Positions 1 through 54,774 of a DNA stretch of 64,000 nucleotides are shown here, piece after piece. The position numbers were made by a program, and so were the translations under genes. The first letter of the stretch is position 1. The number at the start of each line of letters is the position of its first letter. This stretch comes from Vermamoeba vermiformis. Taxonomy: Eukaryota. The notes beneath the pieces are model-generated. The model saw only the letters and a program-made list of their open reading frames with translations, was not told where the DNA came from and made no database searches. The stretch lies in assembly GCA_045837725.1 (NCBI GenBank), contig JBEWZL010000127.1, positions 1-64,000 of the forward strand, written 5' to 3'.

Positions 1-1149
1 GCTGATGGCAAAGAAGAGACTGCACGAGTGCGCACTGAAGCGCTGATCATGGAAGAGCGCATGATCGAGGCCTTAGGACAACTCGTGCTGATTACTGAAC
101 TGCTATTAGTACGCATCGATGCGATAGGCATGAACGAGTGAGTATAGGCCCTCATTGCTATAGACGCGTGCTGACAGTACCGCAGACAAGTGCCACCAGA
201 TCTGCACGAGCCAGTCAGCTCTGTTATCTTCGCTGCCCCTCGCGTGGACGTCAAAGAGCTCAAGCTGGTACGTACCTGCAGTATATACATAGGGGTGCTA
301 ATTAATGTGCGCAGCTGAGTCGCAATCTGAGCAACAAGTACGGCAAGGAGTACAGCGAGAGTGCCGCGAGCAATCGAGAGCAGCAAGTGAATGCACAGCT
401 CGCGCGGCACCTGGCACTCGATCGACCCAAGCACTCGCAGATATACAAGGTGCGTGCTGATGTGTGCGTGTGTGAGTGGCACTGACCAGACACAGGTGAT
501 GCGTGCTGCGTGTGACACGTATCAGATCGAGTGGAATGACCAGCACTTCACGGAACTCATCGCGCAAGTCGAGGGACCCAGTGCCCTGGTTGAGAGCGAG
601 GACAAGCAGGCACGTGATCAGAGTGCACCACGTGATCAAGAGGACGAGCACAGTGCGGACGAGGACGCGTTGATGGCAGAGTTGAATGCCTATCAGAGCA
701 CGCGCAGTGACACGCGTCAAAGTGCGGTCGACACGAGTGACTTGCCTGACGTGCCCGAGCCTGACTTTGACGAGCCCGAGCACGTGCCTGTCAGCAAGAA
801 ACAGGTCAGTCCACCCACCAGTGGTCCCAGCAGCACGAGTTCGCGACAATCCACGCGCACCACTGCAAACACCGCAGTGACACCTGTCAAACCGAGTCCC
901 GAAGAAGACATTGATCTGTTCGCGTCAAATTTCCCGCAAATTCCGTCGACCAAGACCAGCCCTGGTGCGCGCTCAGTGAGTGGCGCGAACACAGCCAACA
1001 ACACGAATGTGATCGAGGAGGACGAGCACGATCTCGAGGCCAAGCTGCCACGTGTCAAGACGGATCCACGTGACAAGAAGCGCGACTCGGGGGCCGGACT
1101 GAACGACGACGATTTGATGGCCCGATTTCAAGCCCTGAAGAAGAAGTGA
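1..1149 (+). CDS. IST1: IST1-like ESCRT-III-associated regulator of Vps4 (5' truncated, multi-exon)
   Basis: Spliced translation gives ..ETARVRTEALIMEE..ELLLVRI..VPPDLHEPVSSVIFAAPRVDVKEL.. and a C-terminal MIM-like DDDLMARFQALKKK*. Confidence 0.85.
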
Positions 1150-1291
1150 TTGCTGTCCATTTGCGGTGATCGATCGGCAGTGCTGCGTGGCGCCACTTGC
1201 CTTATTTGTACATAACTGTATAAAGTTGATAAAATTCCGGTAGCGTATTTACACGCGTCATCGATCCAACACAACCACATCAAATATAAAT

Positions 1292-3058
1292 ATGGAGCAG
1301 AATGAACGCATGTCTCGGCTAGACGCAGGTATGCAATCGAGTGATAGCGGATGTGGCTAGCTAGCTTAACCCATCTAGGTTGACACGTCAATTTTCATTA
1401 GAAATTTGCGTGTAATGACGCAATACAATTTTTAAAATTTAGGCATGCTATTTTTCACCCTAAGCCACGCACAATTGTAATATTAATTATTTTTTTCAAT
1501 TTCGAAAAAGATTTTTTCACCAAGAATCTGCACTACGCGAGCACCTATTGGGAGGAGCACAGTGAAAACTTCAAAGAAATGGTGCAAAAATTAATGACAG
1601 AAGACACACTGGACAAAGTGGGAGGCAATGCGAGTGTAATGGTGCTGACGTTCAATCAGAAGACGGGCTGGATCGAGCAGCAGTACAACACCGACATCAA
1701 CACCGAGGCCTATTCCAAACTGCGCGCAGAGATCAACAAGGACAAGCTCTATTTGTGGCGCATCATGGAGGCCTATTTCGATGCCCTGCACCGTCAGCGC
1801 GCGACCTTTGTGCAGGTGAGTGGTGGTCGCAATGCCGCAGATCTGAAGAACAGTCCCGAACTGCTCAGCATCAAGCGCGTATTCAGTTCGGACCAGTACG
1901 ACGACTCCAAGCTCGCGCCTTTCGCTGCGCAGTTGTTGCCCGCGCAGTACAGCGTGGAGCAGTGTCGCGCCAATTTCTATCCGCCGCTGCTGCTGCTGTG
2001 GCTGCGCTACTTGGACATTTACGACCGCGCGGTGCAAGGCCTGCCCGTGCAAGTGCTGCTGCATCGCCTGCAACACCCGACTGTGCACAAACCTCCGCCC
2101 AAGGACGAGAAGGAACAGCTCATGCAAGAGCTCGGCAATCAGATCGCGCAGGGTGAGTGCTATTTTTAGCGCCGTGTGTGCCCGTGTATACTGACAGGGT
2201 GACAGCATTCGGCAAGAAAGAGTTCTGGGACAACAGATACGCTGGCCTGTCCCTCGCCTCGCCAGCCTACGAGTGGTACATTGCCTGGCCACACATTCAA
2301 CAGTTGCTCGTGCAGCACGTGCCGCTCTTCAGTGCCACGCACCAGGGCTCCACTCCACTGCGCGTCATGGATCTCGGATGTGGCAACAGCACTCTCGCGT
2401 AAGTACCTAATTAGGCTATGCATTGATCAATATCTCCTTCTCATCTCCGCCGTTCAGTGAACAGCTGTGGCAGGAGTACGGCACGACAGCACCGCTCAGC
2501 GAGGTATACGCCATAGACTTCTGCGACCGCGTCATTCAACTCATGCGCGCACGTCAATCAGCGCAGTCACGTGATCACGTGCACTATCTCATCGCGGAAG
2601 CACGTGATCTCACAAAGTTCTACGTGCCGGAACAATTCGTCGCGCCACCGAGTGGTGACAGCATGGAGGCGAAGATGGAGGCCCTCAAACTGAGCAAGAA
2701 TGTCGCGCGCACTGAGCACGTGATCGGAGATTTGAGTGGAACACTTCACTTGGCGATCGACAAAGGCACCCTGGACTGCATCATTTGCAGCCCTGAAGGC
2801 ATTGCAAGTATTGAGCGCTATTTTAAGGAGGTGTCGCGTCTGCTCGTCCCTGGCGGCTACTTTGTGCTCATCTCGTGCGCCATCAACAAGGAACGCACCT
2901 CATTGGTCGACGCACCCAAAAAGTACAACTGGCAAGTGCAGCACGTGATCGAGCAGACTGTCGTGCAGCAGCCTGATCCCATCGCCGCTGTGGACCCGAG
3001 TGCGAGTCAGAAGCCTGTGGAGAAGACTATCTTCACCATCATTGTAAAGAAGTTGTAA
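1292..3058 (+). CDS. Class I SAM methyltransferase (METTL13/EEF1AKMT4-like) with a long unrecognised N-terminal region
   Basis: Motifs FGKKEFWDNRY, YEWY, MDLGCGNSTLA, AIDKGTLDCI and RLLVPGGYFV. Introns at about 2153-2198 and 2399-2457. The 5' exon at 1292-1328 joins in frame via an intron to 1510, but the start is uncertain (1579 is an alternative). Confidence 0.75.
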
Positions 3059-4045: not shown

Positions 4046-7000
4046 CTACTGCGTGTAATTGACAGGTGTCGCAGTGCCACTGTTGTTCGCAGATTCAGCG
4101 GCAGATTTGGCTTTGAGTGTCATCTTGCGCAGACACTTGGGACAGTTGCCACTGACCAGCGCAAAGCAGTGTCGATGATAGACGGACTTGCACTTGACGC
4201 ACAGCGCGATCTTGTCCAGCTGAAAGGGGAACAGCACTTCTTTGCGGTTGTTGCAAATGTCGCAAATGTGTCCCTGACCACGACACAGCGGACATTGCCG
4301 CGTCACGTGCACGATGAATTGTTCCATCAACTTGTACATAAATGGCAACAACACGCCTGTGCGCACCTCCATCAAGTCTTTCAGTGAATACACGTGCAGC
4401 TGTTGCAACAAGTGCAAGCGAGACTGTGGCTCCGTTAGTTGATTGCCTTATTTGGTAATTGTTTGCATACCTGCAAAGATATGACGACAGGAGCGCAGTG
4501 TTTGCAGCGCAGCACGTACTCGGAGAGGGGGATCATTTGTCGCCGCAATTTCTGATGCATCAATGGTGAGTCACGCGCGTCAGAACAGCACAGTGCTCGG
4601 TACTTACGCGCAGCTGATTGAGTGCGGTGACCCAGTCGTAGAGCTGTGGATTGTTGACACCGACATTGATGATGGGGTCGTCAAAGTGCGAGTCAATGTG
4701 TCGCTTGGCTGCAGTGCACACCGAGTACTCCCTGAAGTCCCAGTGATGCACCACGCGTGCGGGGATGATGGCGCGCTTCTTGCTGTGACACTCGCTGCAG
4801 TAGTAGCCGCCCGTGTAGTGACAGTAGCGCACTGTCTTGAAGAAGCCGCTGGACAGCTGACGTCCGCAGCCAGCACAGCGCGATGCAGTGGTGAGCGGTG
4901 CTTTGACAGGCTGATCGAGTATGAAGGACTGGTCGTCAATGTTGATGAACATGGGCATCGAGTTGTAGTCGCGCTCGCTGAGCTGACGAGTGATCACGCG
5001 CTCATCGAACAGCTCTTTCTCGTCATCGGCTGCTGTCTTGTGCACCACATCGTGACTGTCGTCCTCTGCTATGAATAAAAAGCCTATTTTGGGCTGATAA
5101 TCATCTATCACACGCGATTGCAAGATGTAGCCCAGATTGGACTTGACATCACGTGCTGGCTCTTTCTCTGGACTGGCAAGTGGCACGGGATATGTCAACA
5201 TGCGCGTCAGTTCCGCGCTCGGATTGATGATCTGCGCTGTCAGCTCATCGTCCACTGACTCGGAAATTTCCGTCGTGTCGTCAGGAGATTGTTCGAGCTG
5301 CGAATTCGCTGCTAGCGGCGTGTCAGTCGATGGCAAAGTGCCACTCACACTGGTGTTCAGCTCATCACGTGACTCATCGTGCCAGTGACGATCTCCCAGG
5401 GCTTGTTCTACTTGTTGCAGCAGCTGATCGTGCTCGCGCATCATTGAGTCTATATTTAGCAACATGTCACCTGCTGTGCTGTCCGTGTCACCCACTGATG
5501 ACGCGGCATCGCTGTGCATGTCATCAGTCACGTGATCAATGACTTCAGGCACGTGATTGCTGTCAGTGATTTGGGACTCGTTGTTCACTGAATTTTCTTG
5601 TCGGTCATCGTGTGTCACGTGCTCGTTATTACCATTCGGTTCATCACGTGATGTTTGATCTCGGGTCGGAGATTGTGCAAGATCACGTGATCGTCGCGCA
5701 TGCCGCTCTTCAACGACATGTCCGTTCGGTGAATCAGTGTCGAGTGCCACCACGCGCTTGACTGGTCTGCGTCGCTTGCCAGCACGCTTGTCCTGTCCGA
5801 ACAAGTTCACTTCTACCAGGGCCTCGTCTCGCACGCGCTGATAATAGTCCTCGAGGTCGAGGCGCTGCTGTTCGAGACGCAGCTTGAAGGTCAGTGGCTT
5901 CACTGCGCGCAACAGCACCAGCAATATCTCCGCTGCTCGAGATTGCGTCACGAGCGCATTCAGTGAAAAGAACTGGCTCATCTGTTCGTGCGGTGTGTCA
6001 ATCAGGGCGCGGAACAATTCATCCAACAATTGCTGATTGGCTGCTTCAAACAGCGCAGCGCGAAAATAGCCTAATTTGGAGCGAATAGTGACAGGTCCGA
6101 TGGTGTCACCTGTCACTTCTGTCACGTGCTCGGGATCATCGGAGAAATTGACCGCTTCAATGAGAGCACGCACGCGCGCGATGAATTCGCGTCCACGTGA
6201 CCAGTGCAGTTCGAGCAGTGCCACCCAGTCCCACAACTGACTCGCGGCACCTGTCAGTCCTTGACGCGCGATCACTTCGAGCTGTTGGAGCAGGGACACA
6301 CCGCGCTGCGTGTAGATGGGCAGCGGATTGACGGCGTGTTCCTCGAGCAGGGCTGCAATTTCCTTATATAGTTCGTAGAGCAGTTCGCGATCACGACTGC
6401 TGATGCTGCTGTCACTCGTCAACAGCGCGGGCACGTGACTGAACTCCACGCTGGACTGCGCGGCATCCTCGACGGGAGATTGCGCGTAGATTTCTTTGGG
6501 AGAATCGAGTTGTTCCGAGCTCGGTGCGGACTCTCGACCAGGGCTCGGAACTTCTTCCTCGTCTGGCAAGATGACAGGTGGTCGTGTGGGACTGTTTGAC
6601 AGGTGTCAGTGCCCTCCGCAGAACTATATACATCGTGTCCCTATGAGACCAGTACGTACATCATGGGCTGCGCGAGCCAGTACTTCTCTTGATTCAGCTG
6701 CGGATCTTTGAGTTTGAGACTGAAGTTGACGGGGCTAATGCTCTCCAACAGCGATATGAACAGATTGCGCTCATCTTCATTGCGCAATAGTGCATAGTCT
6801 TGATAATGCGACTCGGTCAGTTCTGGATGCCACACCAAGGACTGGATGTACTCGGCCAAACAGTTGTTGTTCAGCGCGTACCGTACAAATATACGCGCAC
6901 GACCCTCTGCAGACTGACCGACAGTTCTGCACAGCACAAGTCACTATTAATAGGTGCACAGAGAGAGTGGTTCGTTACGTACTTGATTTCATCGATTAAC

Positions 7001-9451: not shown

Positions 9452-11484
<2,033 letters not shown>

Positions 11485-13766: not shown

Positions 13767-16700
13767 CTAATTGAGAGTGCCGCGACACTTGGCGCTGGAG
13801 CACGAGCACGGAATCTTGTACTCTTCGGGCTCAATCGGGAACTTGTAGTCGTAGGTGATCTCTTCGCCGACTGCAATGTCGCGCTTGGAGTAGATGACAA
13901 TCTTCTTCTGCTGCTCCACGCTGATGATCTGCGCATAACAGTTGGGCTGAGTGGAAGAGGTTAGTGAACTGCTATTGTCACACACATATATATGCCAGTA
14001 CGTACATCGCAGCAATGATTGATGAATCGCGCGAGATTGCCCTTCATGGTGGCATCAATGATCCAATTGTCGTCGATGCGGAACATGTAGCTCGAGCCAA
14101 TGCCAATCGCTTCGTAACGCTTCTCACGCTCATCAGCGACCTTCTGCCGAATGATCTCGCCAATGTACTCGATCACCATGTCGTCCGCTTGAATGGGCTC
14201 CAGTGCAAACAGACCCCAGTCGTGAATGCCGCTCTTGTCGAAGGTGAGCAGCTTCTTGCGCGTCTTGAGCAGATTGAACTTCATCAACTCGCTCGTGTCT
14301 TTGCTGCCACCCATCATGGCCTGCTGTCCCAGTGACGACAGCAAGTGGCGGTGATTGATGCGCGTGTCGCGGCCAGTCGAGACTGCGCGTTGACCGAGGA
14401 TCTCTTTGTCGTCGTCGAGCACGCGTGATCGTCGTTCAGGAATGTAGCGCACTTTCTCCGCACGACTCTGCTTGTAGTAGCCTTCAGTGCGCGCACTGCC
14501 CGTCACGTGGGGGCTGATCACTGGCACGGGTTCGGGCACGTGACTTGGTTCCGTGACAGGTGCCACCACTAGCTCGACCTCCGTGTCATGCACGTGCTCA
14601 ATCACGTGCTCCTCAGTGTGACGTGTCAACATCATCGCCGCGAGTCGATCACGTGCCACTTGCGCGTAGTACTCGTCCTCGTTCTCCAGCACCGGATCGA
14701 TCTCCGTCGCTTGAAGTTTCTTTAATTGGTGACGGTGTCGCTCCTCTGCTGGCACTGTTGTCGCACTCGTCGTCGGATATTTGCGCGGTCGTCCTCGGCC
14801 TCGCTTGGTGGTCTCCTCGTCACGTGATTTGACCACATCTGTCACGTGCTCGTGTGTCACGTGGTACTCGTCGTGCTGGCGTCGTTTGCGTTCTTTTTTG
14901 GTTCGTTTGCGCGGGCGATCTATTAATAGATCATCGTCCTCCAGCAAGTCCGAGGACTCCTCTGACATCACGTGACTTGAAATTTCATCGTCGTAGCTGT
15001 CGCGCTTGCGTTTCTTGCTCGGCGAACTGCTCGCTGACACGACTGGCTCGGGCTCGGCTTTGACAGGCTCGGAAATTTCCATTTTTGTCGGCGACTGTTT
15101 TGGCTTCTTGTTCAGCCTGGGCACGCCCGAGAGTGTGATGGGTCTATTTTTAGCAGCAATCTCGACCACGTTCTGCACCTGTTTCTCCTGCTTGATCACC
15201 TCCATCGCCTCGCGCTTGACGAGATCTTCTTCCGCATTCTAAAAATAGCACCGTTAGTGGAGTACGCAACAGGCAGTTCTATATTTAGACTCACGCGCTT
15301 GGAGAGGTGGCTCTTGATGAATGCCTCCACAAAGTGTCCCACGGTGTTCTCGATCACCATGCGGTGCACTTGTTGCCACGTGCTCGTTTTGAGATCTCGC
15401 AGCAGGAGATTCAGCACTTGACGCTCATCGAGTTCCGCGCTATTTTTAGATTCAATCTTTGCAGAGCTATCGTTGTGGCCATTGGCACTCGTGTCCTCAT
15501 CGCGCGGTCTATATTTAGACTTGTGCTCGGCGCTGTGCGGAGGTCGTCTTTCCTTTTCTGGAATTAACTTGTAGCAGCGCGACACTTTGTAGCCGTGGTT
15601 CATGAACGCCATGGCTTGATCACGTGCCTCGGAGGTCAGAAACGCAATGTACCACGCGTGCTGTTCTAAAAATAGAACCACTGGCTCGAACGGTTCGATT
15701 AATTTGAACACATCACGTGCTTGGTATTCGTCCAAATTAGGCAATATCAGCGCTGGTACGGGACTCGTCAAGGTCGGCAACAGTGTTTGCAGTTGTTCGC
15801 GCGACCGATAATGACGGGGTGGCAGAGGTCTGCGGGGAGGTGCGGAATAACTCGGATAATGGGGTGGTGGCACGTGATAGGGTACTGGGGGCGGACGTGG
15901 CACGTGACTGTGTGCTTTGACCACGTGATCGTCATCGATCTCCATGTCATCGTCGTCGTGTCCTCCGCTCATCTCGCTGGGTGCGGAGATACTCGGGGGT
16001 GGTGGCACGGGCACGTGATTGTACGGCATGTCCCAGCCATAATTGGGCACTACCATATTAGGCAATGGCGCTGGAGGTGGGTACGACTGCATGACATCGA
16101 GGGCCCATGGTGGCACTGTGAGATTGCCACGTGATTGCGCATTGACAGGTGTCACAGTGCCACCCTTGCGCGGATCGAGCACGTGATCGCTGGCATTGGT
16201 CCAGGTGCCATCGCCGAGACTGAGCAGCGAGGATGCCACCATGACGCCGTTCACTTGATAACTCCGCGCGCCAATCAGTTCGTTGCGCTGTTGGTACCAC
16301 CGCACGTGCCAGTTGCCACCTTGCAGCGGCGTGAACAGCTCGTCGTCTGCAATGAGCACTGCGCGGGGATGGATCTTTGCAGCCCAATCATCCAGGGCAG
16401 GGAACTCGCTGCGCGTCAGTGATTGGCTGACAGGTCGCGGTGGAGGTGTCGGAGTGACACTTTGACTTTTTTGGACTGCCACTGGTTCGGGCACGTGACT
16501 CGGCACTGCCTCGCGCGGTCTGATTGGCACTGGTTCATGAACGCGCTGCCTGTCACGTGATCGACTGCGACTGCGGCGCGGACTGCGATGAGAATTGCCA
16601 TATTTGGGCATGTACTCGGTGCGATACCGCTCACGTGATCGACTGCGGTCGTTTGAACGACGTCCAGACCTGTCACGTGATCGACTGCGCCGTGGTCTAT

Positions 16701-32487: not shown

Positions 32488-34700
32488 ATGTCTTTTTCGA
32501 TTCGCAAGAGACAGATCGGTTAGTTTCTCAAACTTTCGCAAAGTTTTTATCTGTCTAACGCATGCTACAGAGGTCATTAAGCGCATGCTTAATTTGCACA
32601 AAGCACAAGACTCAAAGGCGTATTGGCAAGATGTGTGGAAATTGCTGATCTATGACGATTATTGCAGAGCAATTTTATCTCCTTTATTTAAAGTCGGAGA
32701 CCTTAGACAACTAGGCATTACATTACACATGTAAGGGACATGCAATCAAAAATAGCGGTGATTTTAACAGAGTTCCAGGATGATCAATTCAGATCGACAG
32801 CCCGTGCCTGACGTACCAGCGATTTATTTCGTGATGCCCACCAAAGAGAACGTCGATCTCATGTGTCGCGTATGTTAGTTGGCGATATGAGTATTATTAC
32901 AACGATATTGACACCTGCAACTAGGATTGCAATGCGCGGCTGTACGATCAGTATTATTTCAATTTCGCATCCTCGATCCCTCGTCCACTGCTCGAAGACT
33001 TGGCGCGCACGACACTCGAATGCGATGTAGTGCATCAGGTGAACAAGGTGTGCGATCAGTACGTCAACTTCGTGTCGCTGGAAGACAAGCTGTTCTCGCT
33101 GCAACAGCCGCAGTCGTACTTGATGTGGAATGACCCGAGCATCTCCGACACTGTCGCCGAGAACAACATTGCGCAACTCGTCGCGGCACTCACCTCGGTG
33201 GTGGCAACACTCGGCACCGTGCCAGTGATCAGAGCCGCACGCGGTGGAGCAGCAGCAGTGATCGCCCAAGCACTGGACAACAAGCTGCGCACAGGAGCGG
33301 TGTTGGGAGGCTGGGACGAGAGCAGTCACAGCAACAACTTTGAGCGGCCAGTGATGATCATCGTGGACAGACATCACGATCTCTTGCCCCTGCTGACGCA
33401 CGGCTGGTCCTATCAGTCCCTCGTGCACGATCTGCTCAATCTCGAGCTCAATCGCGTCACGTGTCCCGTCAAAGAGCGCAACACAGTGGTGCAGAAGAGC
33501 TACGATCTCGATCCATCAGATGCGCTGTGGCACGAACACGCAGCTACACCCTTCCCCAATGTTGCGGTGGAGATCAAGACACAAGTGGATGAAGTGCAGG
33601 CACGCATTAACAAGTCACGTGACAATCGCACCAATGTCGATGTGGAGGACGACAACAGAGTGGTGGAGCACACGCGAGATCTGGGCACATTGATCACAGC
33701 CCTGCCCGAACTGCAAGAGAAGAAGCGACTGTTGGACATGCACACGAACATCTCCCTCGCGCTGCTCGATGAGATCAATGCGCGCAGTCTGGACACATTT
33801 GTCTCGCTCGAAGACGCGCTGTTGACCAAGAGCAATGTTGTAAGTAGCCTCTGTCATTAGTACGCACTGATGTGATGCTGATGCGCGCAACAGAACAGAA
33901 AAGATGTGCTGCAAGCCCTGAGCGATGAGAAGGGCACCAAAGAGGACAAGTTGCGCTTGTTTTTGATCTATTACATCTGCAATCAACAGAAATTGCAGCC
34001 GCAAGAGTTGAAAGAGCTCGAACAGGCCCTCACCGCACAGGGCATTGATCTCAAAGTGTTCAAATATCTCAAGCAGTAAGTGCCCCAAGTAAGAGATGAT
34101 GCGCGCAGTACTCACCTCTGCCTCTAGAATCAAAGCATTCGATGACACCTGGACGGCATCAGTTGCGACATCGAGCACCAAGACCAACACGAACAGTCTG
34201 TTGAAGACCGTAAGTCACCTCGCACCCTCGACTTGACACTCTTGTTGACACGTGTCAATAGGACTTTTTGAAGAGTTTCACCGATCTAGTGAGTGCCAGT
34301 GTCAAGTACTTGATCCCTGCCACTAAGGACTATCACGTGACACGCGTGGTGGATGCAGTGATGGAGCTCAAGAGTTCACCGGACATTGACAACTATCTCT
34401 ATCTCGATCCCAAGTTCCAGCCCGATGCCGCACCGCGCAAGACCACGCCATTCCGCCAAGCAATTGTATTCGTACTTGGTGGTGGCAATTACCTCGAGTA
34501 CCTCAATCTCATGGACTACGCCAAGAGAGTACGTAGTAGATCTCCGGGATACTACTAAATACTAACATATTACATAGTCAAAGCAACAAAAGAATCTCGG
34601 GTTGGGCAAGAAAATCATATATGGCACCACAGAGCTGTTGACTGGCAAAGAGTTCCTGCATCAGCTGCAACAACTAGCCGACAAAACTCCTGGCCTGTAA
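32488..34700 (+). CDS. SLY1: Sec1/Munc18 family protein Sly1/SCFD1
   Basis: WKLLIYDD, LRQLGITLH, DVPAIYFVMPT, RPVMIIVDR..LTHGWSYQSLVHD, FVLGGGNYLEY and IYGTTEL. Confidence 0.95.
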
Positions 34701-40080: not shown

Positions 40081-40251
40081 GCCTGTCGAACATCCTTTTG
40101 TAAAAATTGCAAAGTAAAACTCACCATTACATCACAGTACTTGTTTGTCGTTGATCAGCTTGAAGCGACGTCAGTGACGGGAATGCAAATGTGTTAAGTG
40201 AGTTTAGGCCTCCATTTTATTGCTAGTTCGATCAGAACACCACCCCTCACC

Positions 40252-42876
40252 ATGTTAGCACGAACATGGAGCCTAGTCTCCAAGGCAGTGCGTACCACGA
40301 CATTGCAAGGTGTTCCAGGCCGATCCATATCACGATCAGCTCTGCATCGGCTCACAAAAACACAGCAGACTTACAAAACTAATATTTATTATAAAAACAC
40401 AAATACCATATCCCCACTGCGATATGCTCAATATGCTACAAAGCCAGAATCCCCTAGCACTGATGTCAAGAAAACATTCGTTTCATCTCATTTTAAAATA
40501 GATCCAAACGTTATTTATTCATTTTTGAAGAGGAAAAATATAATGTTCAAAGAAGTACCGAGCGACGATAAAAAACTGCGGCTTCGTGACTGTCAGTGGT
40601 GTCACGATACAAAGAACAAATATTCCAACCAATATAAATTGTACATAAACAAAGACAATGGAAGTTATTTATGCTTTCGATGTGGCAGTCGAGGTTCATG
40701 GTAAGAAAATTAACAAATGATTTTTTTGGTCAATTCTACAACCAATTTGACGATCGGATCCGGTGTTTATAGCCGCTTATTGTTATTACTGTAGGTTTGA
40801 TTTTCAACAAAAATATGGAGATTTGACACAAGTCACTGATTGGAAGGGCGAAACAGCGGTGCCCAAAGAACAAGCTGTCGAGGAGTGGGTGCGCCATCCA
40901 GAGCCAGTGCCCACTGATTTTGTCGATGCTGACGGCACACTGCGCGCTGAACCAGTGCAAATACCACCTGAAGAGACGAGCAATCCTAGTCCGAGCAAGA
41001 GAAACAGCCTCACAAAGACGCGTCGTGAGGTGAAGCAGATCAAGACCAAGTACAACGAGACCGAGCTGAAAGAGATCAAGTTGCCTGAGCCCGCCAAGCA
41101 GCAGTCATTCGTGAACAACTTGAGCACCTATCCCGAGCTCATGGACTACCTCGTGCGCGAACGGTAAGTCACACCAAGCGCGTGATCACGTGATTGACAG
41201 GTGTCAAACAGCGGTCTGAAAGCAGAAGTCGTGCACAAATATCTCGTGGGTGGCACTGTGTCGCGCTTCTTCGACGAGAATGACAAGCAGTGGAAGGACT
41301 TCTTGTGCATCACCTTCCCCTGGTTCGGACCACTCTCCCTCGCCACTGCTGGCACCGAGACACTGGTGCGCTACAAGTACCGCGCTCTGGGTGGCAAGTG
41401 GCTGCAGCGATTGGAGCCCATTGGCGGTGGATGGGGCGTGTTCGGCTGGAATTTGATTGCCCCTGAAGTGACTGCCAGCATTGATGGCACACTGCCTGAG
41501 CCCAAGGCAGCAGCGGACGTGTCAAACGGAGTGACAGGTGTCACTGAGAGTGCTGCGAGTCAGAGCGGCAAGACCTCAGTGATCATCACGGAGGGCGAGT
41601 TCGATGCCATGGCTGTCTATCAAGCCACTGGTCTGCCGGCTATTTCACTGCCCTGTGGTGCCAAGTATGTCACGTGATAATTATTGCCTTATTCGGACTA
41701 ACAGTGTTTGCAGCTGTTTGCCTGTGGAAGTTATCACGATGCTCGAGCGATTCGACAAGATCTATTTGTGGCTCGATGACGATGTGGTGGGACAACAAGC
41801 CGCGCAGAAATACGCGCTCAAATTGGGACGCGAGCGCTGCTACATTGTCAGCACCAAGCTTGGAGCCACAACTGGTCCGAAAGATGCGAATGATGCGCTG
41901 CGTCAAGGACATGATTTGGGCACTATTATCAAGGCTGCACGTCGCTTGCCTCACAAACAGATTTTGAATTTCAACGAGATCCGCTCTGAAGTGTTCCGCG
42001 AACTGGCCAATCCCGATCAAGGTAAGTGCGTCGAGTAGCACGCGCACGAACTGACCAATCACAGTGGCTGGACGTCAAATGCGCTCATTCCCGACACTGA
42101 ACAAGCTGCTCAAAGGACATCGCAAGGGCGAGCTGACCATTCTGACGGGTCCGACAGGCATTGGCAAGACGACCATCATCTCGCAGATCAGCATGGACTT
42201 GTGCAGTCAAGGGGTCAACACGCTGTGGGGCAGTTTTGAGTTGAACAACGTGCGACTCGCGAAGAAGATGTTGAATCAATTCGCGCAGAAGAATTTGGAA
42301 AAACATTTGGCTGAATTTGACTTGTGGGCCGACAAGTTCTCGCAAGTGCCGCTCTACTTCATGCGCTTTCATGGTGGCACTGAAGTTGAAGCTGTGCTCG
42401 ACGCCATGGACTACGCAGTGTACGTGTACGATGTTGAACACATTGTGCTGGACAACTTGCAGTTTATGATGCAAGTCGGACACTTCAAGGGCTACGAGAG
42501 ATTTGATCAGCTCGACTCGGCCATCTCATTGTTCCGCAAGTTTGCGACAGAGAAGAACGTGCACATCACGCTGATCATTCACCCGCGCAAAGAGGACGAT
42601 GGTCAGGCCTTGTCCATCAACTCGGTGTTCGGCACTGCCAAGGCCACACAAGAGTCCGACAATGTGATTATTGTGCAGAAAGGCAAGTACTACCGCTACT
42701 TGGAAGTGACCAAGAACAGATTCAGCGGTGACTTGGGCATTGTGCCGTACAAGTACGACAAGGAGAGCAACAAGTACTTTGAACTGCACGGCAAAGATTT
42801 GCAGAAAGTGACTGCAAACAGCGGCAGTCAGAGCGGCCCTGCCACAGTGCACAAAGCACCAGCACCACCCTCGTGA
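40252..42876 (+). CDS. TWNK: Mitochondrial Twinkle primase-helicase
   Basis: Zn finger CQWC..CFRCG, TOPRIM ITEGEFDA, WLDDD and KDAND, and SF4 helicase motifs GELTILTGPTGIGKTT, LDNLQF and IHPRK. Confidence 0.95.
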
Positions 42877-44750: not shown

Positions 44751-45903
44751 TTACACCGAAGAATCACGTGGCAGCCAACCGCGACAGTTGTGAGCCCCAC
44801 ATTGACACTTGACACCTGTCATTTGCCCCTCTGCAACGCCGTAGTTGAAGCACAGCTCTTCACCGGCACTGATATCGCGGAGTGCGAAGAAAGCAGCACG
44901 TGGTACAATTGTTCCGACTCTGACGGGCACCAGCGCGCAGTTCGGTGCACAACTGTGGTTCATGAACCGCGCGACATTGCCGCACAGTGTCGCATCGATG
45001 TTGGTGCGCAGAAAACTGTTCTGTGAAGGACTGACGGGTGTGAGTGCGCTGCTTGAATGACGCGTGTCAAACACTCACCTCCACTCGCGCAGCACGAGCA
45101 CATAGTTGACACGTGTCACGTCGTAATTCATGAACCGTTGCCGCGCCATTGCTGTGCTGATCACCTCGCCGCAGTACTCCGCGATGAATGCACCGGCCCT
45201 GATCGATGCGCACGTGATCAGCGACCAACCTGCAGTGTGTAAGCAGATGTATCGAGATATATTTCCATATTTAGAGTATATACGAGGGTCTTATGCGCCA
45301 CTCACCCTTGTGCGCGGTCTTGACGAGGGCCAGTGCACGCTGCAGGCCACGTGACACTTGTCTGTTAACGCACTCAGGACTGCAGCGACACTTGGCGTGA
45401 CATTCGAGCACTGGCTGCGACTGATCGATCAACAGCCCTGCACTGGTGTACGCTGCACTGGTCAGTATTGCCTAATTAGGCTATTTTCACTTACCAATTC
45501 GACACGGACAGGATGAAGCTTGACAACTGCCGTGACAGTCACAACACTGCATGTGTGTACTGGCTTCTGATATACGAGCTTGGTATTCACTCGCTACACG
45601 CACTTCAGTACAATACTGCGGATGGAGATTAATGCGGCGTTGAAACAATTTTTAAAATTAATCGAACAGCTCCCACCGGATGACACTATCGCTGTCACAC
45701 GCATCCAAGAGTTGGCATAATATTTAAAATTATTATCAGTGGCTACTTGCCTCAACCAGCGGAGGATAAGGCTCGTTGTCAATGTCATTCAAGCACGGCA
45801 CGGGCACTGATTCGCAGCCACACGACCAGTCAAATGGTACGGCAGTGTGGTCCATGTCCTTGCTTGACTGTTGTAAAGGCTGTCTCTTACCATTTTGGGC
45901 CAT
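44751..45903 (-). CDS. Pre-SET/SET/post-SET histone methyltransferase (SETMAR-SET/SUV39-like)
   Basis: DWSCGCESVPV, Cys-rich pre-SET, FIAEYCGEV, GNVARFMNHSCAPN, EELCFNYG and CQCGAHNCRGWLP. Start approximate. Confidence 0.85.
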
Positions 45904-47703: not shown

Positions 47704-49416
47704 CTAGCTGTGGTCTTCCAACAAAAACTCTTGAATCTCTTGTCTGAATTCACGCAACTGTTAGCTCTGTAATTAACATGAATATCACTAACACTTACTT
47801 CAATCGACCATTCAGTGTCTGAGCACTGTGCTGCGCATAATGTTGCACGAGGTCCTTCTGATTGGTCTCTTTGGCCAGCACTTGACAGCTGTAGCACAGT
47901 ACTGGGCCCTCGCTCTTAGTCTTGCGCTCCTCACGCGACAAGAGATGTGCGCACAGTCCACAGTACTGATAGTGCACGGGTGCTGTTTCTGCGTCCTTGA
48001 GCTCACCCTCGTCAATGTACAACTTGTCCGCTGAGCCGAGCAGTGTGTGCACGGTGTGATTGAAGTCACGCTGCAATCCCGTGATGAAATCTAGCAGTAG
48101 TGGTGAGATCAAATAGAGCTCATAATAGAACACGTACTGTACGTCAACACATTGATGCTTGATTTGGGACCCACGCCCTTCAACCCACTCTTCGCGAGCA
48201 CGAGTGTGTAGGGCAGTGAGGGGAAGTAGCGCAATTGCTTCTTGTGCGAATAGAAGTAGATCTCGCGGTCTAAGAACTCTTTCAAGGGCTGTGCAAAGGT
48301 CACTTCGGGCTACAAATGCTGGTTAATAACGGTAGAGCTATGAAGAGGCATTACGTACCCCGTCATCTTGTTTGATCGACTCCACGTAGCCCAGTTCACT
48401 CGGCAACACAAAGCCACGGCCCTTAGAGCTCGAAGCAATCAATTGCACCGCGAGATTGGTCGCTGTGTTGGCCAACAACAGTGTCGAACGACTAGAGTAC
48501 AACGAGTTAATCATTTACATGAAATTGACACGTGTCAAACACTCACCCCCGTTGACGTTGTGAACGAATGAACAACAGTCGTCGCAAGTGCGGCAACAGA
48601 TCTTCTTTGGCGGTCTGTGTCGTTGCCCCTGCAAACAATTGCTGCAGTTTGTGCACGCGCGTCTGTGGCTCTGCATCGTCAAACACGTCTTCGAGTCGCA
48701 GCACAGTGAGGGGCAAGTGATGGCGCTGCACCACGAGCTCGTCGATCAGCTGCTGCTTGGCCGCGTGCTGTCAAATGTCACGTGTCAATGAGCTGCCTGA
48801 TCACGTGTCAGACGCACGTACCTCTTCAGGTGTGAGGGGCAGCAGGGCACTCTCATCAATGTGCACCACACCTACATCCAGCAGATTGCGTTGTCCTCCT
48901 GGTCTGCGATTGATCCACTCGCCCACCAGATCCAACAGCACACACGACGCTAGTCCGCCAGAGAAGGCAATGTCTATTTGAAACAACTCTCGGCGATCTT
49001 TGCGGGCCTTGAGTGCGTGTGATCTGAATCTCTTGGAGAAAAAGTCTTCGAAGCACGTCCTGCACCAAGATCCGATCAGCGAAAATTTACAGAAATCAAA
49101 ATTAAATCTTAATAATTTGTAAAATAATATTTAGATTAATTATTGAGCAAAGGTTTTATAAGGAAGCGTTCTAATATTATTTCGAATTATTTTGTTCAAT
49201 TTCTGTTAACGATCTCTTACCAGCAAGTAGACTCGCGCATACGATATATTAACTCTGCCTTATTAGTCTTGCATCTTAAACATATCTTCGACGCTTTTCT
49301 CGGCTATTGAGATCCGGTTAACGAATTGGATCCGCTTTTAATCGTTGTCATACCTCCTTTACCACTGGCGTCTCTTCAGTGCCACAATCACCACCAGTAT
49401 TAGTATTGCACTCCAT
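47704..49416 (-). CDS. CTU2: Cytoplasmic tRNA 2-thiolation protein 2
   Basis: N-terminal CxxC..CxxC, IAFSGGLASCVLLDL, QPLKEFLDREI, CGLC..LCYSC, and last exon KQEIQEFLLEDHS*. Confidence 0.85.
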
Positions 49417-50246: not shown

Positions 50247-51658
50247 CTAGCGATTGAGTTGTGCAGCAGCGTTCTCGCCCTCGTCCTGGTCGTGCATGTG
50301 TTGCTGCAACACGCCGTGAATGTCATCGGGATTCCAGCTCGGGAACAGCGAGTAGAAGAACGGCACGAAGAAGCCGTGCAACTCACCCCAGAGACCAGGG
50401 GGCTGACGATAGGGCACGGGCTGATTGGGATTGGCTGGGGCGTTATTTACATTGTTGGGAGCATTGTTGTTGTTGTTTGGACCTTCGTTATTGTTGGGGA
50501 CATTAGGTGCGGCATTGTTATTGGGCACATTGTTGTTATTGGGGGCAATATTGTTATTATTATTATTAGGTGCATTGTTGTTGTTGGGTGCGTTGTTGTT
50601 ATTCACATTGTTGTTGGGAGGTTGTGGCACACCGGGCACAATGTTCACTGCGCGCATTGGCAAGAGACCAGTCTGATATCTGTCGCATGGAGATTAGACA
50701 AGGATCGTTCATGAACGCAATCACGTGACGTACAAGTAAATCACCACTGCACCAACGGCTAAAAGCAGCGTGCGTTGTGTGGTGCCACCCTGCGAGAGGA
50801 CATAGACCATCAAGAGCAGCTTGAACACGAGCGACAAGTTGATGTTGATCACGCGCACTTGACGTCGTTGTTGCTGCTGCTGTGCCATCATTATCTGTTG
50901 GAATGGGTTCATTTGCCTAATATGGTAATGTTAGTGCCAGTCATGAGTGACACGTGTCAATGTATGACTTGCCCTTGCAGTACAACACGCTGTTGATAAG
51001 CAGGACCATATTGACCCGGATAGGGGCCTGGAGGAGGATATTGATTGTAGTAGGGATTGGGGCCTGGCTGAGGTGCATAGCCTGGCATCATATAGGGACC
51101 TCCGACTTGTCCGAGGTGCATCTGCATCCGCTGTTGATAGAGATAAGGGTTGGGTGCTTGATTGAACGGTTGATTATAGACCTATACCGTGTTAGATAAA
51201 TGTTATGATTCATCGGCTATAACAGTATTATTCAAGGACTTACAGGCTGTTGCGGCGGTGTTACGGGTGCTGCATTGTTTGTACCGGATGTAAATTCTGT
51301 CTTGAGCACCAAATGGAAGGTTTGAGGTATAGAAAGATCATGCTATATTAATAGTGTATCAATATTAATTCAGTAAATAAAAACCGAATTTGACTGCCAC
51401 GTCGATTATTCAAAATAATTAAAAAAATAGAATAATAGGCAAATAAATACGTACGAGTCTTAAAATATCCTTCAATACGTCCGTATCTTGCAGTAGTCTT
51501 CCTGCAAATATAAATCGTTGTCGTTCTACCGGCGGACGCGAGGGATGGTCCTGGGCAATCCGCTCCTTCAATTCTTTGACTGTTGCAGAAAGGTTGAGCT
51601 GTAAACGAAAGTCCTCGTTATAGCTAGGGCTCTTAATTAACAACTGCACATCGCTCAT
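50247..51658 (-). CDS. Ubiquitin-like-domain membrane protein (HERPUD-like)
   Basis: N-terminal UBL LLIKSP..TVKELKERI..QRFIFAGRLLQD, a P/Y/Q-rich linker, a TM segment, an N-rich tract and FFYSLFP. Confidence 0.75.
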
Positions 51659-51995: not shown

Positions 51996-52452
51996 TTATT
52001 TAGCGCCAGCCTTCCATCTGTTTGGTGTATAATGAGTATATGGAATTTATCTATAATAGTTTGAGACTTACTGTTGGAAAGAAGCGGCGAGAACGGGCAA
52101 AGCAGCGAAGACAGCAAGAGGAAGGTAGATTTTGGTTTTCATTCTAAGAGTAGATTGGCGAATCTTGAAGGGCAAGTTCTACGTGTATTATAATAATTAA
52201 TTATATATTTTTGGTGAATATTACGCGTTATCTTCAATTAATAATAAATTATTTGCTAATCCATTGCTTGATCTAACAATCTGCCAGTTATGTTCCTAAT
52301 ACAATAATGTTACAAACACATACGTCACCGAATTTGGGAGTGCCGTGGTGACCATGATCACCGTGGCCGTGGTCGCCATGACCTCCACCTCGTTGAGGCA
52401 ATCTGCGGGCAACCATGCGGTTAGCAAAGAGTTGAGCAACACGACCACTCAT
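51996..52452 (-). CDS. COX7C: Cytochrome c oxidase subunit 7C (three exons)
   Basis: Presequence and His-rich stretch, then NLPFKI..IYLPLAVFAALPVLAASFQQWKAGAK*; the NLPF motif plus a single TM is typical of Cox7c. Confidence 0.7.
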
Positions 52453-52624
52453 TGTGACTAGTGTTTTGTTATTATAAAGGATGAATATGAATGGTTTGGC
52501 ACCGAACAATTGTTTTTGTCCAGCCCTGATATTTTTTTAACTCCGCGAATCTGACAACAGTCTTATTCGTCGCAGCTATGTACATATTTATTGGTGCTAC
52601 TATGATACAATGGAGCAATAACGC

Positions 52625-54774
52625 TCAGAACCAAGTCTCCGTCATGAATCGGTCGTGCAGCTCCATGGTGCGGATGTACTTGTCAGCCTCGTCCTCGCTG
52701 AGTCCCCCCTCGCGCACTATAATCTCTTTGAATGCACTGCGCACCTCTTTGGGCATGTTCTTCGCATTGCCAGACAAGTAGAACACTGCTCCCTCACCGT
52801 GTATCAACTCCCACACCTTGCGCGAGTGTTCTTTCAGCAGGTGTTGCACGTACACTTTACGCGGCTGATCTCTGCGAGGGGCGTTAGTGTTGATACGAAT
52901 AGGTGTGAATAGGTGCATGACTAGGAGTACCTTGAAAACGCGACGAGGAGCTGATCCAAAGTGTGTTCAGCGAGCAGTGCGTGCCACTCATCGCGGAACA
53001 AGTAGTCTTGGTGCTCGTGTCTGCAGCCAAACACAAACATGTCGCGCGAGGGGCTGTGCGTGCCCAGTGAAGCCTGTCGAGCCCAGTGGCGCTCTTCAAA
53101 GAACGCACGGAATATTGCACAGCCAGTGCCGGGACCCACAGCGATGATAGGCGTAGTGAGCTGTGGCGGCAGTCGCATGGTGCCTTGTTTGACCCAAATT
53201 GGCACACGGACCTCAGCTGATGAGTGTTAGAAGGTATTATACAACTGACACTAAGAGTACTAATGCTGTACCTGTCTGAGGCTGCAACTTGCTGAGCCAA
53301 GTGGAGCACACACCGCGCTTGAGTCGATTGATGGGTGACTTGTACTTGACCACCACCATCGCAATGTGAATCTGACTGGGATGTGCGTGCAGTGACGAGG
53401 CAATGGAGAATGGACGGGGTTGCAGGCGCGGAAATATCTCCAACACGCGCTCGAGGGGCGGTCGTGCCGAAGGGAAGTCGCGCAACACATCAAAGCACGA
53501 GCGACGAGCGCGGTGACAGTAGTCGAGCAGATCGTCTTGGCCCTCTGGCGTGCCGAACAGTCGCAGTCTCTCGCGCTCCATGGGGTCAGTCGCAAAGAAG
53601 GCGAGTTGTTCGAAGAAGTGTCGTCGAGGTACGCCCCAGACATCACAATAAGCGCGGAACAATTGTCGGACTGTGAGGGGCAGTGCGAGGTCTGGCTTGG
53701 GCGTGTCAGCCTCTGTGCCCTCGAGCTGTGTGATGACGAGCTCTGGATCGTAGCCCAGCCAAGCAATGATCTCGTCAGTCTCAGGCGGGTTCTCTGGTCT
53801 GATGTACACCACGTCGCCAGGACTGTACGTGATGCCCGAGTCGTCGAGATCAAACACAATGTGGCGCACATCTTGCTCCCAGCCCGCACTCGTGAGTCGT
53901 TCGTTGCTCACCAGGCGCGCTAGATACGGTGTCTTGCTGTCATACTGCGCAGGTCGCTCATTGACAGGTGTCACATTCGTCAACACAGTCTTGTCGCTGC
54001 TCGTTGTCATCTTGTACTTGGGAGGTTGTCTGCAAATGTCACGTGTCAGTCAGAGCTACAATTGACAGGTGTCACACAGTGTGTCGTACAAAATGTCATC
54101 AGGCAGCACGTGCACATCAGCAGGCAGTGGATAGAGTGTCATCAATACGCGCCACAGTTCCACGGACCAGGGCGTGAGTTCAGAATACAGACCATATTTG
54201 CCCTGGTCGTCGCCATCACCGCGGCGTACAATCATTTGCGCGCCCAGTGCTTCCAATCGACGCGCCAACTTCTTGCCCACAAAATTGTATTTGGTGTAGC
54301 TGCTGTCTCCTAGTCCAAACACTGCCGCGCGTACTGTGCGCAACGAATCTGCGGGGAGATTTTTGCGTAATAAGAAGCGCCAAAATGACTAGCGAAGGGT
54401 CAGTATCGAATTAGTTATTCGCAGTACTAGATCTACCTTCATGTTGTCAGGCACTTCACCTTGACCAGTAGTAGAGCATACAAATATAACAAGTTGTTCG
54501 AGGGGCAAATTAGTCTGATAGAATACTAATCAGAATGTTGTTATTGTTATTCAGAATTGCACGTGGCGCGAATATTAATTATAATCAGAAATATTCATAA
54601 CCGACCAATAATGCCTATATAACCATAGCTTACCACTGGATAATCTTCCATTGATATTACTCGTGTTTTAAAATGACGCCGTTTGCCTTCGCGCGCGATC
54701 TGCTCTGCCACTTCTTGTGCAGTGCCTGTTTGCGTGCCGTATAAAATCAATAGGGGTGGTCTATTATCTGCCAT
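52625..54774 (-). CDS. NDOR1: NADPH-dependent diflavin oxidoreductase 1 (Tah18)
   Basis: ILYGTQTGTAQEVAE, FGLGDSSYTKYNF, QDVRHI, PRPFSIAS, GPGTGCAIFR and ETWF*. Confidence 0.93.

Follow-up and report, generated by a model that had tools for sequence, protein, structure and literature searches.

What kind of signal is a 12-bp palindrome that recurs inside genes? The question is raised by a 64-kb stretch of the Vermamoeba vermiformis genome (contig JBEWZL010000127.1, positions 1 to 64,000; hereafter the window). The palindrome, TGACASSTGTCA (TGACA-SS-TGTCA; hereafter the word), has exactly 15 matches in the window, at the same 15 positions as in a preliminary description of this DNA, against a mean of 0.03 in 100 dinucleotide-preserving shuffles, none of which (0/100) reached 15 copies; the chance expectation had rightly been put at well under 1. 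The density is about one copy per 4 kb, with a copy in roughly half of the genes, and for a eukaryote it is very unusual to find an exact word this dense within genes. The AT-rich, gene-free stretches of the window hold no copy.

The 2-bp spacer is nearly exclusive. When TGACA-N-TGTCA was counted in the window for spacers N of 0-12 bp, the 15 copies at N=2 stood against 0-2 at any other spacer (0, 0, 0, 0, 0, 1, 2, 0, 1, 1, 1 and 1 at N=0, 1 and 3-12), and the everted arrangement TGTCA-NN-TGACA was absent from the 64 kb. Sites with zero, one and two mismatches number 15, 21 and 60, against 0.1, 4.2 and 44.7 expected (means of 30 first-order Markov simulations), a steep fall-off that agrees with the many near-matches reported earlier; the S-S centre is retained in 14 of the 21 one-mismatch sites. 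Half sites on the + strand (100 TGACAS and 93 STGTCA) predict 0.145 adjacent pairs where 15 are seen. Among the 116 CACGTG sites, TGA stands on the left in 9 and TCA on the right in 13, with both in 7 against 1.0 expected, and among the 47 CAGGTG/CACCTG sites the corresponding numbers are 14 and 11, with both in 8 against 3.3 expected; for the remaining CACGTG flank classes, left/right pairing matches independence. The two halves of the word are cooperative. By the half-site and flank-pairing counts the dyad is a distinct motif, as had been claimed, and not a by-product of CACGTG or of single TGACA, the abundance of which does not explain its frequency.

On the + strand the central dinucleotide is CG in 7 copies, GG in 6, CC in 2 and GC in none; independent half sites TGACAC (73%) and TGACAG fit the observed 7 CG, 8 GG/CC and 0 GC, with GC predicted 1.07 times. 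Inverted repeats of the 5-2-5 type number 108 overall against 88.5 expected, a surplus roughly equal to the 15 copies of the word; since there is no general excess of such repeats, it is the sequence that is selected and not foldability. Every copy has CACGTG or CAGGTG/CACCTG at its centre, as do the E-boxes of bHLH factors. However, the bulk of the CACGTG family has flanks of the form RTCACGTGAY that pair independently, only the TGA...TCA class is cooperative, and the specified bases of the dyad reach 16 bp. The flanks of the 15 copies are unique apart from a symmetric A/T preference, at-TGACA-SS-TGTCA-at (A at +1 in 18/30, T at +2 in 17/30), so the word is not a repeat element.

Table 1. The 15 exact copies of the word in the window.
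Copy	Form	Gene or ORF	Placement	Reading or position
878..889	TGACACCTGTCA	ORF 391-1146, + strand	coding, Ser/Thr/Pro-rich segment	V-T-P-V-K
6597..6608	TGACAGGTGTCA, CC on sense strand	RUN/Rubicon-homology gene, minus strand	predicted intron 6592-6659	ends 5 nt before 3' AG (..TGTCAaacag)
16143..16154	TGACAGGTGTCA, CC on sense strand	SET1-like ORF 15199-16791, minus strand	coding, Pro-rich linker	V-T-P-V-N; CACGTG 9 nt away
24877..24888	TGACACGTGTCA	ORF 24600-25034, + strand, no Pfam match	coding	L-T-R-V-K
30126..30137	TGACACGTGTCA	protein kinase gene, + strand	intron 30092-30147	ends 10 nt before 3' AG
31529..31540	TGACACGTGTCA	coiled-coil gene, minus strand	intron 31522-31578	ends 7 nt before 3' AG
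34246..34257	TGACACGTGTCA	Sec1-family gene, + strand	intron 34210-34261	ends 4 nt before 3' AG
41195..41206	TGACAGGTGTCA	Twinkle-like primase/helicase gene, + strand	intron 41164-41211	ends 5 nt before 3' AG (aacag); CACGTG 2 nt upstream
41532..41543	TGACAGGTGTCA		coding in window, linker preceding TOPRIM motif	V-T-G-V-T
44810..44821	TGACACCTGTCA, GG on sense strand	SET-domain gene, minus strand	coding, between SET and post-SET parts	M-T-G-V-K, then CQCGAHNCRGWL (peptide read by eye)
45107..45118	TGACACGTGTCA	gene of copy 44810, minus strand	coding, variable insert of SET domain	V-T-R-V-N
48526..48537	TGACACGTGTCA	CTU2-like gene, minus strand	intron 48492-48546	+10 to +21 from 5' splice site (gtgagtgttTGACACGTGTCA)
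50948..50959	TGACACGTGTCA		mid-intron; intron-like on both strands, + 50925-50980 or minus 50917-50983 with CTAAC branch site	minus-strand reading by eye, with ORF limits
53962..53973	TGACAGGTGTCA, CC on sense strand	diflavin reductase-like gene, minus strand	coding, flavodoxin/FAD-binding linker	V-T-P-V-N
54063..54074	TGACAGGTGTCA, CC on sense strand	gene of copy 53962	intron 54030-54089	+16 from 5' splice site

Seven copies are coding and eight lie in short introns (Table 1). The coding copies share a single frame, nTG-ACA-SSN-GTC-Ann, which reads Thr-x-Val (7/7), and all are found in linker or low-complexity segments, that is, in weakly constrained DNA. The frame containing copy 878 has no Pfam match, so the exon status of that copy is given by its 252-aa open frame only; for copy 44810, the SET match is in ORF 44754-45074. 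As for the introns, the seven placements previously listed (30126, 31529, 34246, 41195, 48526, 50948 and 54063) all hold, and copy 6597 is an eighth. An RNA joint (48492/48550, in RNA contigs X5 and X8) supports one of the eight, copy 48526, the other seven being placed by their splice signals, by reading frames that join and by Pfam pieces to either side. Frames are open for 93 and 676 codons about intron 6592-6659 (with RUN-domain pieces on either side), for 173 and 301 codons about 31522-31578 and for 99 and 263 codons about 54030-54089, and the joined frame across 41164-41211 is likewise open. With intron 30092-30147 removed, ..PFWMPPEMIHRKPHGCP runs on into ADIWSFAVCILEM.. and the frame stays open, the Pkinase match stopping at the donor site, and the Sec1 match continues in ORF 34262-34555, after intron 34210-34261.

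It had also been suggested that the word was co-opted as a branch-point context. A branch site of the form yTnAy is expected 10-20 nt ahead of the 3' AG. Five of the eight intronic copies have the word's TGAC at that position, its A lying 13-19 nt from the 3' AG, and in copy 6597 the sole branch-point-like site is cacTGACa. The remaining three copies in introns do not fit, nor do the seven in exons; intron 54030-54089 has a separate CTGAC branch site, as well as a CACGTG, downstream of the word. By position the suggestion may thus apply to five introns, and its direction may be reversed: TGACA branch sites may have been there first, with the word growing onto them. In sense orientation the eight GG/CC copies are CC in 5 and GG in 3, and this absence of a sense-strand bias points to a DNA-level signal, in line with the DNA-binding role first envisaged.

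Comparison with a relative (L005, ~80% identical, 12.6 kb covered) bears on how the word arises. No exact copy is present in the 12.6 kb. At the site orthologous to copy 31529 the relative has TGACACTTGTCA, with 11/12 positions conserved; at that of copy 34246 the intron is present and the word absent (5/12 positions match), the flanking exon DNA being conserved and the intron diverged. Neither intron differs in length between the two genomes; since orthologous introns are equally long whether or not they hold the word, substitution gave rise to it, rather than insertion or excision. Over the same 8 kb, CACGTG occurs 12 times in the window and 6 times in the relative, and exact 12-mers 2 times and 0 times; CACGTG sites are kept in 4/12 cases, against 31.5% for all hexamers. 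Conservation in related genomes, proposed earlier as a check, was thus seen at one of the two orthologous sites and not at the other, and was not above background. Word sites turn over between species.

Among published sites, those that the word resembles most closely in sequence are TALE-homeodomain double sites (MEIS, PKNOX and TGIF type), a resemblance pointed out in the preliminary description that extends here to the A/T flanks. The MEIS3 motif as tabulated in PMC5449588 is TGACAGGTGTCA, letter for letter the GG/CC-centred form of the word, and the TGIF1 crystal described in PMC6158717 has two homeodomain monomers on the palindrome ATTGACAGCTGTCAAT, whose ATTGACA..TGTCAAT frame is the one given by the word's flank preference. 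Inverted TGACA halves (15/15 copies, everted 0), a 2-bp centre and A/T flanks are thus common to both. In contrast, the canonical TGIF centre given there, GC, is absent here and CG is commonest (7/15), and the copies lie within introns and coding DNA, not control regions, and turn over between close species.

We propose, with confidence about evenly balanced by doubt, that the word is a ~16-bp two-fold symmetric DNA recognition site, read by two copies of one DNA-binding domain and multiplied by substitution in gene bodies. The consensus a-t-TGACA-(CG>GG/CC)-TGTCA-a-t would be bound by two copies of one sequence-specific domain, and ATTGACACGTGTCAAT is the predicted specific target of such a dimeric binder, in preference to spacer or half-site mutants. 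The word would have multiplied by point substitution in the transcribed, weakly constrained DNA of this protist lineage, spreading in short introns and in the disordered or linker parts of coding sequence, in genes with little RNA coverage. In introns it would tend to form on an existing TGAC(A) branch site and to fill the few bases left before the 3' splice site, so that a single sequence serves both purposes, and in exons it would survive solely in the Thr-x-Val frame. It is probably the density of the word, rather than each single site, that is maintained. We infer the protein that reads the word, and its TALE-like nature, from the form of the site; Pfam models found no TALE/homeobox protein or other candidate binder among the 111 ORFs scanned in the window. 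Against this proposal, the gene-body density and the turnover between species are unlike those of ordinary, promoter-bound transcription-factor sites, the word sites are not conserved beyond background, the canonical TGIF centre is missing, and the evidence as a whole is drawn from a single 64-kb window.

Could the word instead act in pre-mRNA, either in splicing, as a signal or an extended branch site, or through an RNA-binding protein that recognises a mini-hairpin of 4-5 bp with an A-SS-U loop? Every one of the 15 copies lies in transcribed DNA, and introns, which make up ~9-16% of the sequence, hold 8 of them; in five introns no other branch-site candidate is as good as the word's TGAC, and a small hairpin of -2.9 to -3.9 kcal/mol is predicted. 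However, the GG (3) and CC (5) sense-strand forms are different RNAs and both are used, 7 copies are exonic, the 3 intronic copies off the branch site have a separate one downstream, and a branch site accounts for just 4-5 of the 12-16 specified bases. The hairpins, moreover, are no better than those of shuffled sequence (z about -1 to -1.5), and neither compensatory stem variants nor a general 5-2-5 excess is seen, so that we find an RNA-level element improbable. Fainter still is the chance that the copies are remnants of mobile elements, be they abutted terminal inverted repeats, excision footprints or a preferred target of a transposon or introner. Inverted 5-bp arms about a 2-bp centre do resemble recombinase or transposase end pairs; gtgagtgtt directly precedes the word in two introns (at 48546 and 45078), the latter being the next intron downstream of copy 45107 (45031-45078), which begins with gtgagtgtt and the one-mismatch copy TGACACGCGTCA; and in RNA contigs X5 and X8 unrelated sequence runs up to exactly the first base of copy 41532. 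Against this, the word copies show no target-site duplications, the coding copies keep frame with no sign of indels, and the unique flanks and the orthologous introns of equal length with and without the word do not fit a dispersed repeat or MITE. The flanks do share more 8-mers than random site sets do (108 against 61.5 +/- 12.2), but these are other short words and not homology.

The main rival, which we nevertheless rate as rather doubtful, is that the palindrome was spread by molecular drive, a methyltransferase together with mismatch repair, or biased gene conversion, turning near-cognates into the word on the model of HIP1; any protein involved would then serve in DNA repair or marking rather than in regulation. 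HIP1, too, occurs inside genes. So do the uptake sequences (USS/DUS) of Haemophilus and Neisseria, abundant exact words found in both orientations, concentrated in weakly constrained coding segments and in particular reading frames and thought to spread by drive; as bacterial words they rely on natural transformation, and their units lack dyad symmetry; we know of no uptake process in Vermamoeba vermiformis. To our knowledge no such drive exists in eukaryotic nuclei, and a literature search found none. As described in PMC4390886, HIP1 (GCGATCGC) and the alternate cyanobacterial palindromes resemble the word in being short, exact, far above expectation and subject to lineage-specific gain and replacement, and methylation-dependent repair is proposed there as the maker of HIP sites. 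The word is HIP-like in its excess (15 against 0.03-0.15 expected, coding and intronic alike, in one 64-kb window). HIP1, however, is a bacterial 8-mer tied to cognate orphan methyltransferases, whereas the word is a 12-16-mer in a nuclear genome with spliceosomal introns. Drive would suit the extreme density in genes, including coding DNA where the word writes Thr-x-Val and CACGTG likewise His-Val, the turnover at background rate with lineage-specific enrichment, and the like over-abundance of several unrelated words (near the dyad, CACGTG, AGTGCCAC and TGCGCGCA). It would also suit the level of CACATG/CATGTG, the deamination neighbours of CACGTG, at 0.27 of expectation against 4.5 for CACGTG; this depletion is not specific, however, because CATG is depleted generally (0.53). 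Furthermore, 8 of the 15 copies, those centred on GG/CC, have no central CpG to methylate, and the enrichment, seen in a comparison of two genomes, may reflect losses in the relative or gains here. Since drive also needs a sequence reader, it does not exclude the dimeric recognition site that we prefer. Of the window ORFs scanned, only 2411-3055 resembles a methyltransferase, and its matches are to generic SAM-methyltransferase models.

By analogy, one might go further and imagine a eukaryotic nuclear counterpart of HIP1, USS or Chi, a marking, repair or conversion system that writes a small vocabulary of exact words into gene bodies, which we think unlikely. Its vocabulary would comprise the 16-bp dyad, CACGTG, AGTGCCAC and TGCGCGCA; such a system would have the strength to force Thr-x-Val and His-Val into proteins and to capture branch sites, and highly expressed, strongly conserved genes would be spared. 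Should the rest of the genome show the same pattern, a eukaryotic nucleus would offer a clear example of a short exact word kept within genes at hundreds of times its chance frequency, one that takes precedence over protein sequence where segments are tolerant and has bases in common with splicing signals. Two testable questions follow: whether sequence-specific drive or selection for density can shape coding DNA in eukaryotes in the way that HIP1 and uptake sequences shape it in bacteria, and what role a TALE-type (or other dimeric) DNA reader would have with sites in gene bodies and not promoters. Annotation is affected as well, since in this lineage predictions of splice sites and motifs are biased by the words. 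CACGTG, the commonest hexamer of the window, spells His-Val 7 times within one 531-aa ORF.

The 12-bp word TGACA-SS-TGTCA, in which TGACA and TGTCA enclose a centre of CG, GG or CC, occurs as 15 exact copies in the window against 0.03 expected, and none of 100 shuffles reached 15; this, like every word count given here, comes from one 64-kb window. A motif search returned exactly the 15 positions listed in the preliminary description (see table), and the preference for a 2-bp spacer that it had proposed was borne out, with 15 copies at spacer 2 vs 0–2 at any of the others tested (0, 1 and 3–12). No everted pair at spacer 2 was found in the window. Half-site numbers predict 0.145 adjacent pairs where 15 are observed, so that neither of the two outcomes named beforehand as counting against the word, no spacer preference or a frequency explained by CACGTG and single TGACA abundance, was what we found. 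CACGTG is the commonest hexamer of the window, with 116 sites, mostly RTCACGTGAY with independently paired flanks. TGA and TCA flanks occur together on 7 of the 116 CACGTG sites (1.0 expected) and on 8 of 47 CAGGTG/CACCTG sites (3.3 expected), and the remaining CACGTG flank classes pair at the rate expected of independent flanks; since only TGA/TCA flanks exceed independence, the 12-mer is a separate cooperative unit in a CACGTG-rich genome. A variant, TGTCACGTGTCA (4 copies), was set aside because two abundant CACGTG flank classes would overlap about that often by chance (5.7 expected, 6 observed).

The centre dinucleotide is CG in seven copies, GG in six and CC in two on the forward strand, and none of the other 13 dinucleotides was found in that place anywhere in the window. 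By our own arithmetic these counts match half sites that combine independently, TGACAC (73%) or TGACAG, a model that would give about one GC-centred copy, so the lack of a GC centre does not show that it is excluded. Sites with one mismatch total 21 (4.2 expected), 14 of them keeping the S-S centre, and those with two mismatches 60 (44.7 expected). Clustering, with three pairs of copies 100–340 bp apart and about 1.1 expected (again our own arithmetic), was not significant.

Outside the word, the sequence around each copy is unique. When flanks from both sides are folded together, A stands at +1 in 18 of 30 and T at +2 in 17 of 30, a preference that extends the specified site to at-TGACA-SS-TGTCA-at. 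More 8-mers recur among the flanks than among randomly chosen sites (108 vs 61.5 ± 12.2), these being other short words such as CACGTGAC. Inverted repeats of the 5-2-5 form show no general excess window-wide (108 vs 88.5 expected, a surplus of about these 15 copies), and the RNA mini-hairpins did not outperform shuffled sequence (z −1.0 to −1.5). The word is thus a word, neither a repeat element nor a structure.

Copies of the word and other features located in the window
Position	Feature	Context	Sense-strand centre (GG/CC copies)	Place in intron
878	word, coding	Ser/Thr/Pro-rich or Pro-rich tract	CC	
6597	word, intronic		CC	acceptor side
9907-11481	nuclear gene	cpn60		
16143	word, coding	Ser/Thr/Pro-rich or Pro-rich tract	CC	
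23017-24030	nuclear gene	bacterial-type RecA		
24877	word, coding			
30126	word, intronic			acceptor side
31529	word, intronic			acceptor side
34246	word, intronic			acceptor side
41195	word, intronic		GG	acceptor side
41198-42873	nuclear gene	Twinkle-like primase/helicase		
41532	word, coding	Twinkle-like protein, linker ahead of TOPRIM motif	GG	
44810	word, coding	between SET and post-SET parts	GG	
45031-45078	intron with one-mismatch copy			donor side
45107	word, coding	SET domain, variable insert		
48526	word, intronic			donor side
50948	word, intronic			
53962	word, coding	linker joining flavodoxin and FAD domains	CC	
54063	word, intronic		CC	donor side
59920-60294	nuclear gene	FtsZ-family		
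63640-63713	tRNA-Met (CAT)	sole Rfam/ARAGORN match		

The window is gene-dense nuclear DNA, with Pfam matches to mitochondrial-type cpn60, RecA, FtsZ-like, Twinkle-like, RPN2, Sec1, SET1, RUN/Rubicon, FKBP, protein kinase and other genes. The nearest named proteins are about 60% identical both for RPN2 (early-diverging fungi and Arcella) and for cpn60 (green algae, Dictyostelium, Blastocystis). The nuclear genes for bacterial-type RecA, a Twinkle-like primase/helicase, an FtsZ-family protein and cpn60 suggest a mitochondrion that retains FtsZ-based division and RecA, which speaks against a fungus as source even though the best RPN2 matches are fungal. Rfam and tRNA scans of the window returned nothing besides the one tRNA-Met, and a codon-usage map of coding potential was too weak for annotation. 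RNA-contig joints in three public runs show the introns to be short, 45–145 nt, and of the form GTRNGT ... CTGAC/CTAAC ... YAG; most intron calls in the window are predictions. A first automatic prediction yielded 313 candidates, many of them false positives, and the filtered set of 72 introns (5.7 kb), which still includes calls on the wrong strand or inside ORFs and lacks introns supported by RNA, serves only for a rough intron share.

Eight of the 15 copies are intronic, among them the same seven that had been placed in short introns from the sequence, mostly predicted ones. Where RNA supports them, introns occupy 834 nt of about 5.2 kb, and in the rough prediction 5.7 kb of 64 kb; with a share of roughly 9–16%, eight of 15 is a clear excess (binomial P ~5e-4 at 15%, our own arithmetic). 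Among the RNA joints listed, 48526 alone of the intronic copies has support, and the seven others were assigned on splice signals, open joined frames and domain pieces on both sides. At 30126, removal of the intron restores the continuity of a kinase motif (..HGCP/ADIWSF..), and at 34246 a diverged intron lies amid exon DNA conserved in a related species.

In the five introns with an acceptor-side copy, the word ends 4–10 nt upstream of the 3' AG, its TGAC is the best or only branch-site candidate, and the candidate branch A lies 13–19 nt from the AG; ordinary introns of the window carry CTGAC or CTAAC 10–16 nt from the AG and, in a few cases, as far as 21 nt away. The word is packed as closely against the acceptor as a normal distance from branch site to acceptor allows. 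At the three donor-side places the word lies 10–16 nt past the donor, with a separate branch site downstream. The proposed link to a branch-point context is real by position, for five of 15 copies, and explains only 4–5 of the specified bases, and we read the word as having grown onto an existing TGACA branch site, which is not the reason for its existence.

The reading frame of all seven coding copies is nTG-ACA-SSN-GTC-Ann, which encodes Thr-(Pro/Gly/Arg)-Val; of the two alternatives, one places a stop at TGA and the other would read Asp-x-Cys. Each sits in a linker or low-complexity segment, and codon usage is ordinary for the window (ACA 27% of Thr codons, GTC 29% of Val codons). At 41532, RNA contigs from runs X5 and X8, of different studies, join at least 195 nt absent from the window exactly to the first base of the copy; in the window, that base is preceded by AG. 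This foreign sequence may stem from a paralogue or an alternative exon, or mark a structural variant with the word as breakpoint.

On the sense strand, five of the eight GG/CC copies read CC and three GG, which argues that the signal is read on DNA rather than RNA. The AT-rich, gene-free stretches of the window hold no copy. Over the 20 kb compared with RNA contigs, all nine copies fall in low-depth bins (X5 depth ≤10.2; 18 of 30 bins), and the well-covered RPN2, FKBP and 51.5–52.8 kb genes have none, a weak pointer to low expression because contig depth measures expression poorly. Raw reads of a further RNA run, X24, gave no alignment to the stretch.

A related species was represented in one scan by two metagenome contigs, L005:1-8078 and L001:1-4574 (8.1 and 4.6 kb), which are syntenic with window 30785–40125 at 78–84% nucleotide identity, have conserved intron positions and cover only two copies of the word. 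The exact 12-mer is absent from these 12.6 kb, and the part of the window that aligns with L005 has two. L005 shares both introns that carry them, with length unchanged across the word and the flank on its acceptor side; the ortholog of 31529 reads TGACACTTGTCA, with 11 of 12 positions matching, and that of 34246 matches at only five of 12. CACGTG is identical in L005 at four of 12 sites, the background for all hexamers (31.5%), and over the same 8 kb the window has 12 CACGTG and L005 six. The words thus arise by substitution in older sequence, turn over fast and are richer in the window's lineage, although this two-lineage comparison is unpolarised and fits gains in the window or losses in L005 alike. 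Three more distantly related contigs (L002-L004; 48–55% protein identity) hold no copy in their 3–5 kb each, too little DNA to judge.

Strict spacing, two-fold symmetry reaching into the flanks, independent half sites, a steep mismatch penalty and indifference to strand together point to a sequence-specific DNA reader, two copies of which would sit symmetrically on the word; that the word is a DNA recognition word for such a paired reader is, judged from sequence patterns, an evenly balanced proposition. The density of the word, its position inside genes and its lack of site conservation do not fit an ordinary regulator, and the same three features keep alive a HIP1-like drive, in which the sites themselves would be generated; PMC4390886 proposes methylation-dependent repair as the creator of HIP1 sites. 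It is not obvious that this model extends to the eight copies lacking a CpG centre, and we consider such a drive somewhat unlikely.

For a paired reader, the closest published specificity is that of the TALE homeodomains: a MEIS3 motif is listed as TGACAGGTGTCA (PMC5449588), and a crystal structure shows a pair of TGIF1 homeodomains on ATTGACAGCTGTCAAT (PMC6158717). A TALE homeodomain is accordingly named as leading candidate, as in the preliminary description, although that this family is the reader is, taken by itself, somewhat unlikely. Literature searches on CACGTG, iterated palindromes and TGACAGGT with KNOX found no such word described in a eukaryotic nuclear genome, and the three 12-mers as exact strings matched only primers besides the MEIS3 table and the TGIF1 paper.

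Several other words likewise greatly exceed their expected counts: AGTGCCAC(C) and TGCGCGCA (19 each), CAGATCTG (11), CTAAAAATAG (7) and GTTCATGAAC (6). GATCCGATC (9) and ACCAGGGC (17) are over-abundant as well; flanks are not conserved around these two, nor around AGTGCCAC(C), TGCGCGCA, CAGATCTG and GTTCATGAAC. CACGTG is spread unevenly, with 15 and 8 sites in two bins over SET1 (14001–18000) and 0–1 in the bins that span the larger part of cpn60 and the helicase portion of the Twinkle-like gene. Within the SET1-like ORF, CACGTG is translated as His-Val seven times and as x-Arg-x six times, in Pro/Ser/Arg-rich segments. Beyond dinucleotide content, CCGG (0.38), CATG (0.53), CTAG (0.59) and AACG (0.60) fall short of expectation, and CpG is not depleted (1.02). 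Neighbour depletion as a repair signature was dismissed as unspecific, CATG and AACG being depleted generally.

Among introns, CACGTG often directly follows the donor hexamer (27117, 41665, 50733), and the three with donors at 15294 (−), 26173 (−) and 26522 (−) open with GTGAGT or GTAGGT and then directly CTAAATATAG; further introns contain CTATTTTTAG, and the intron with its donor at 2153 (+) is grouped with these. Both are CTA(A/T)4TAG words, which we take to resemble MADS/MEF2-type sites. The 17 introns extracted from RNA joints contain no CACGTG, carry the 12-mer only at 48526 and are by eye mostly AT-rich; word-bearing introns have about 36–52% GC. The AT-rich, RNA-confirmed introns, word-free bar 48526, lie mostly in well-covered genes (RPN2, FKBP, 35–36 kb, 52 kb), and the word-bearing ones in genes of low RNA-contig depth. 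The window seems to hold two intron types, those of 34900–40100, 46200–47600 and 51500–52400 vs the rest.
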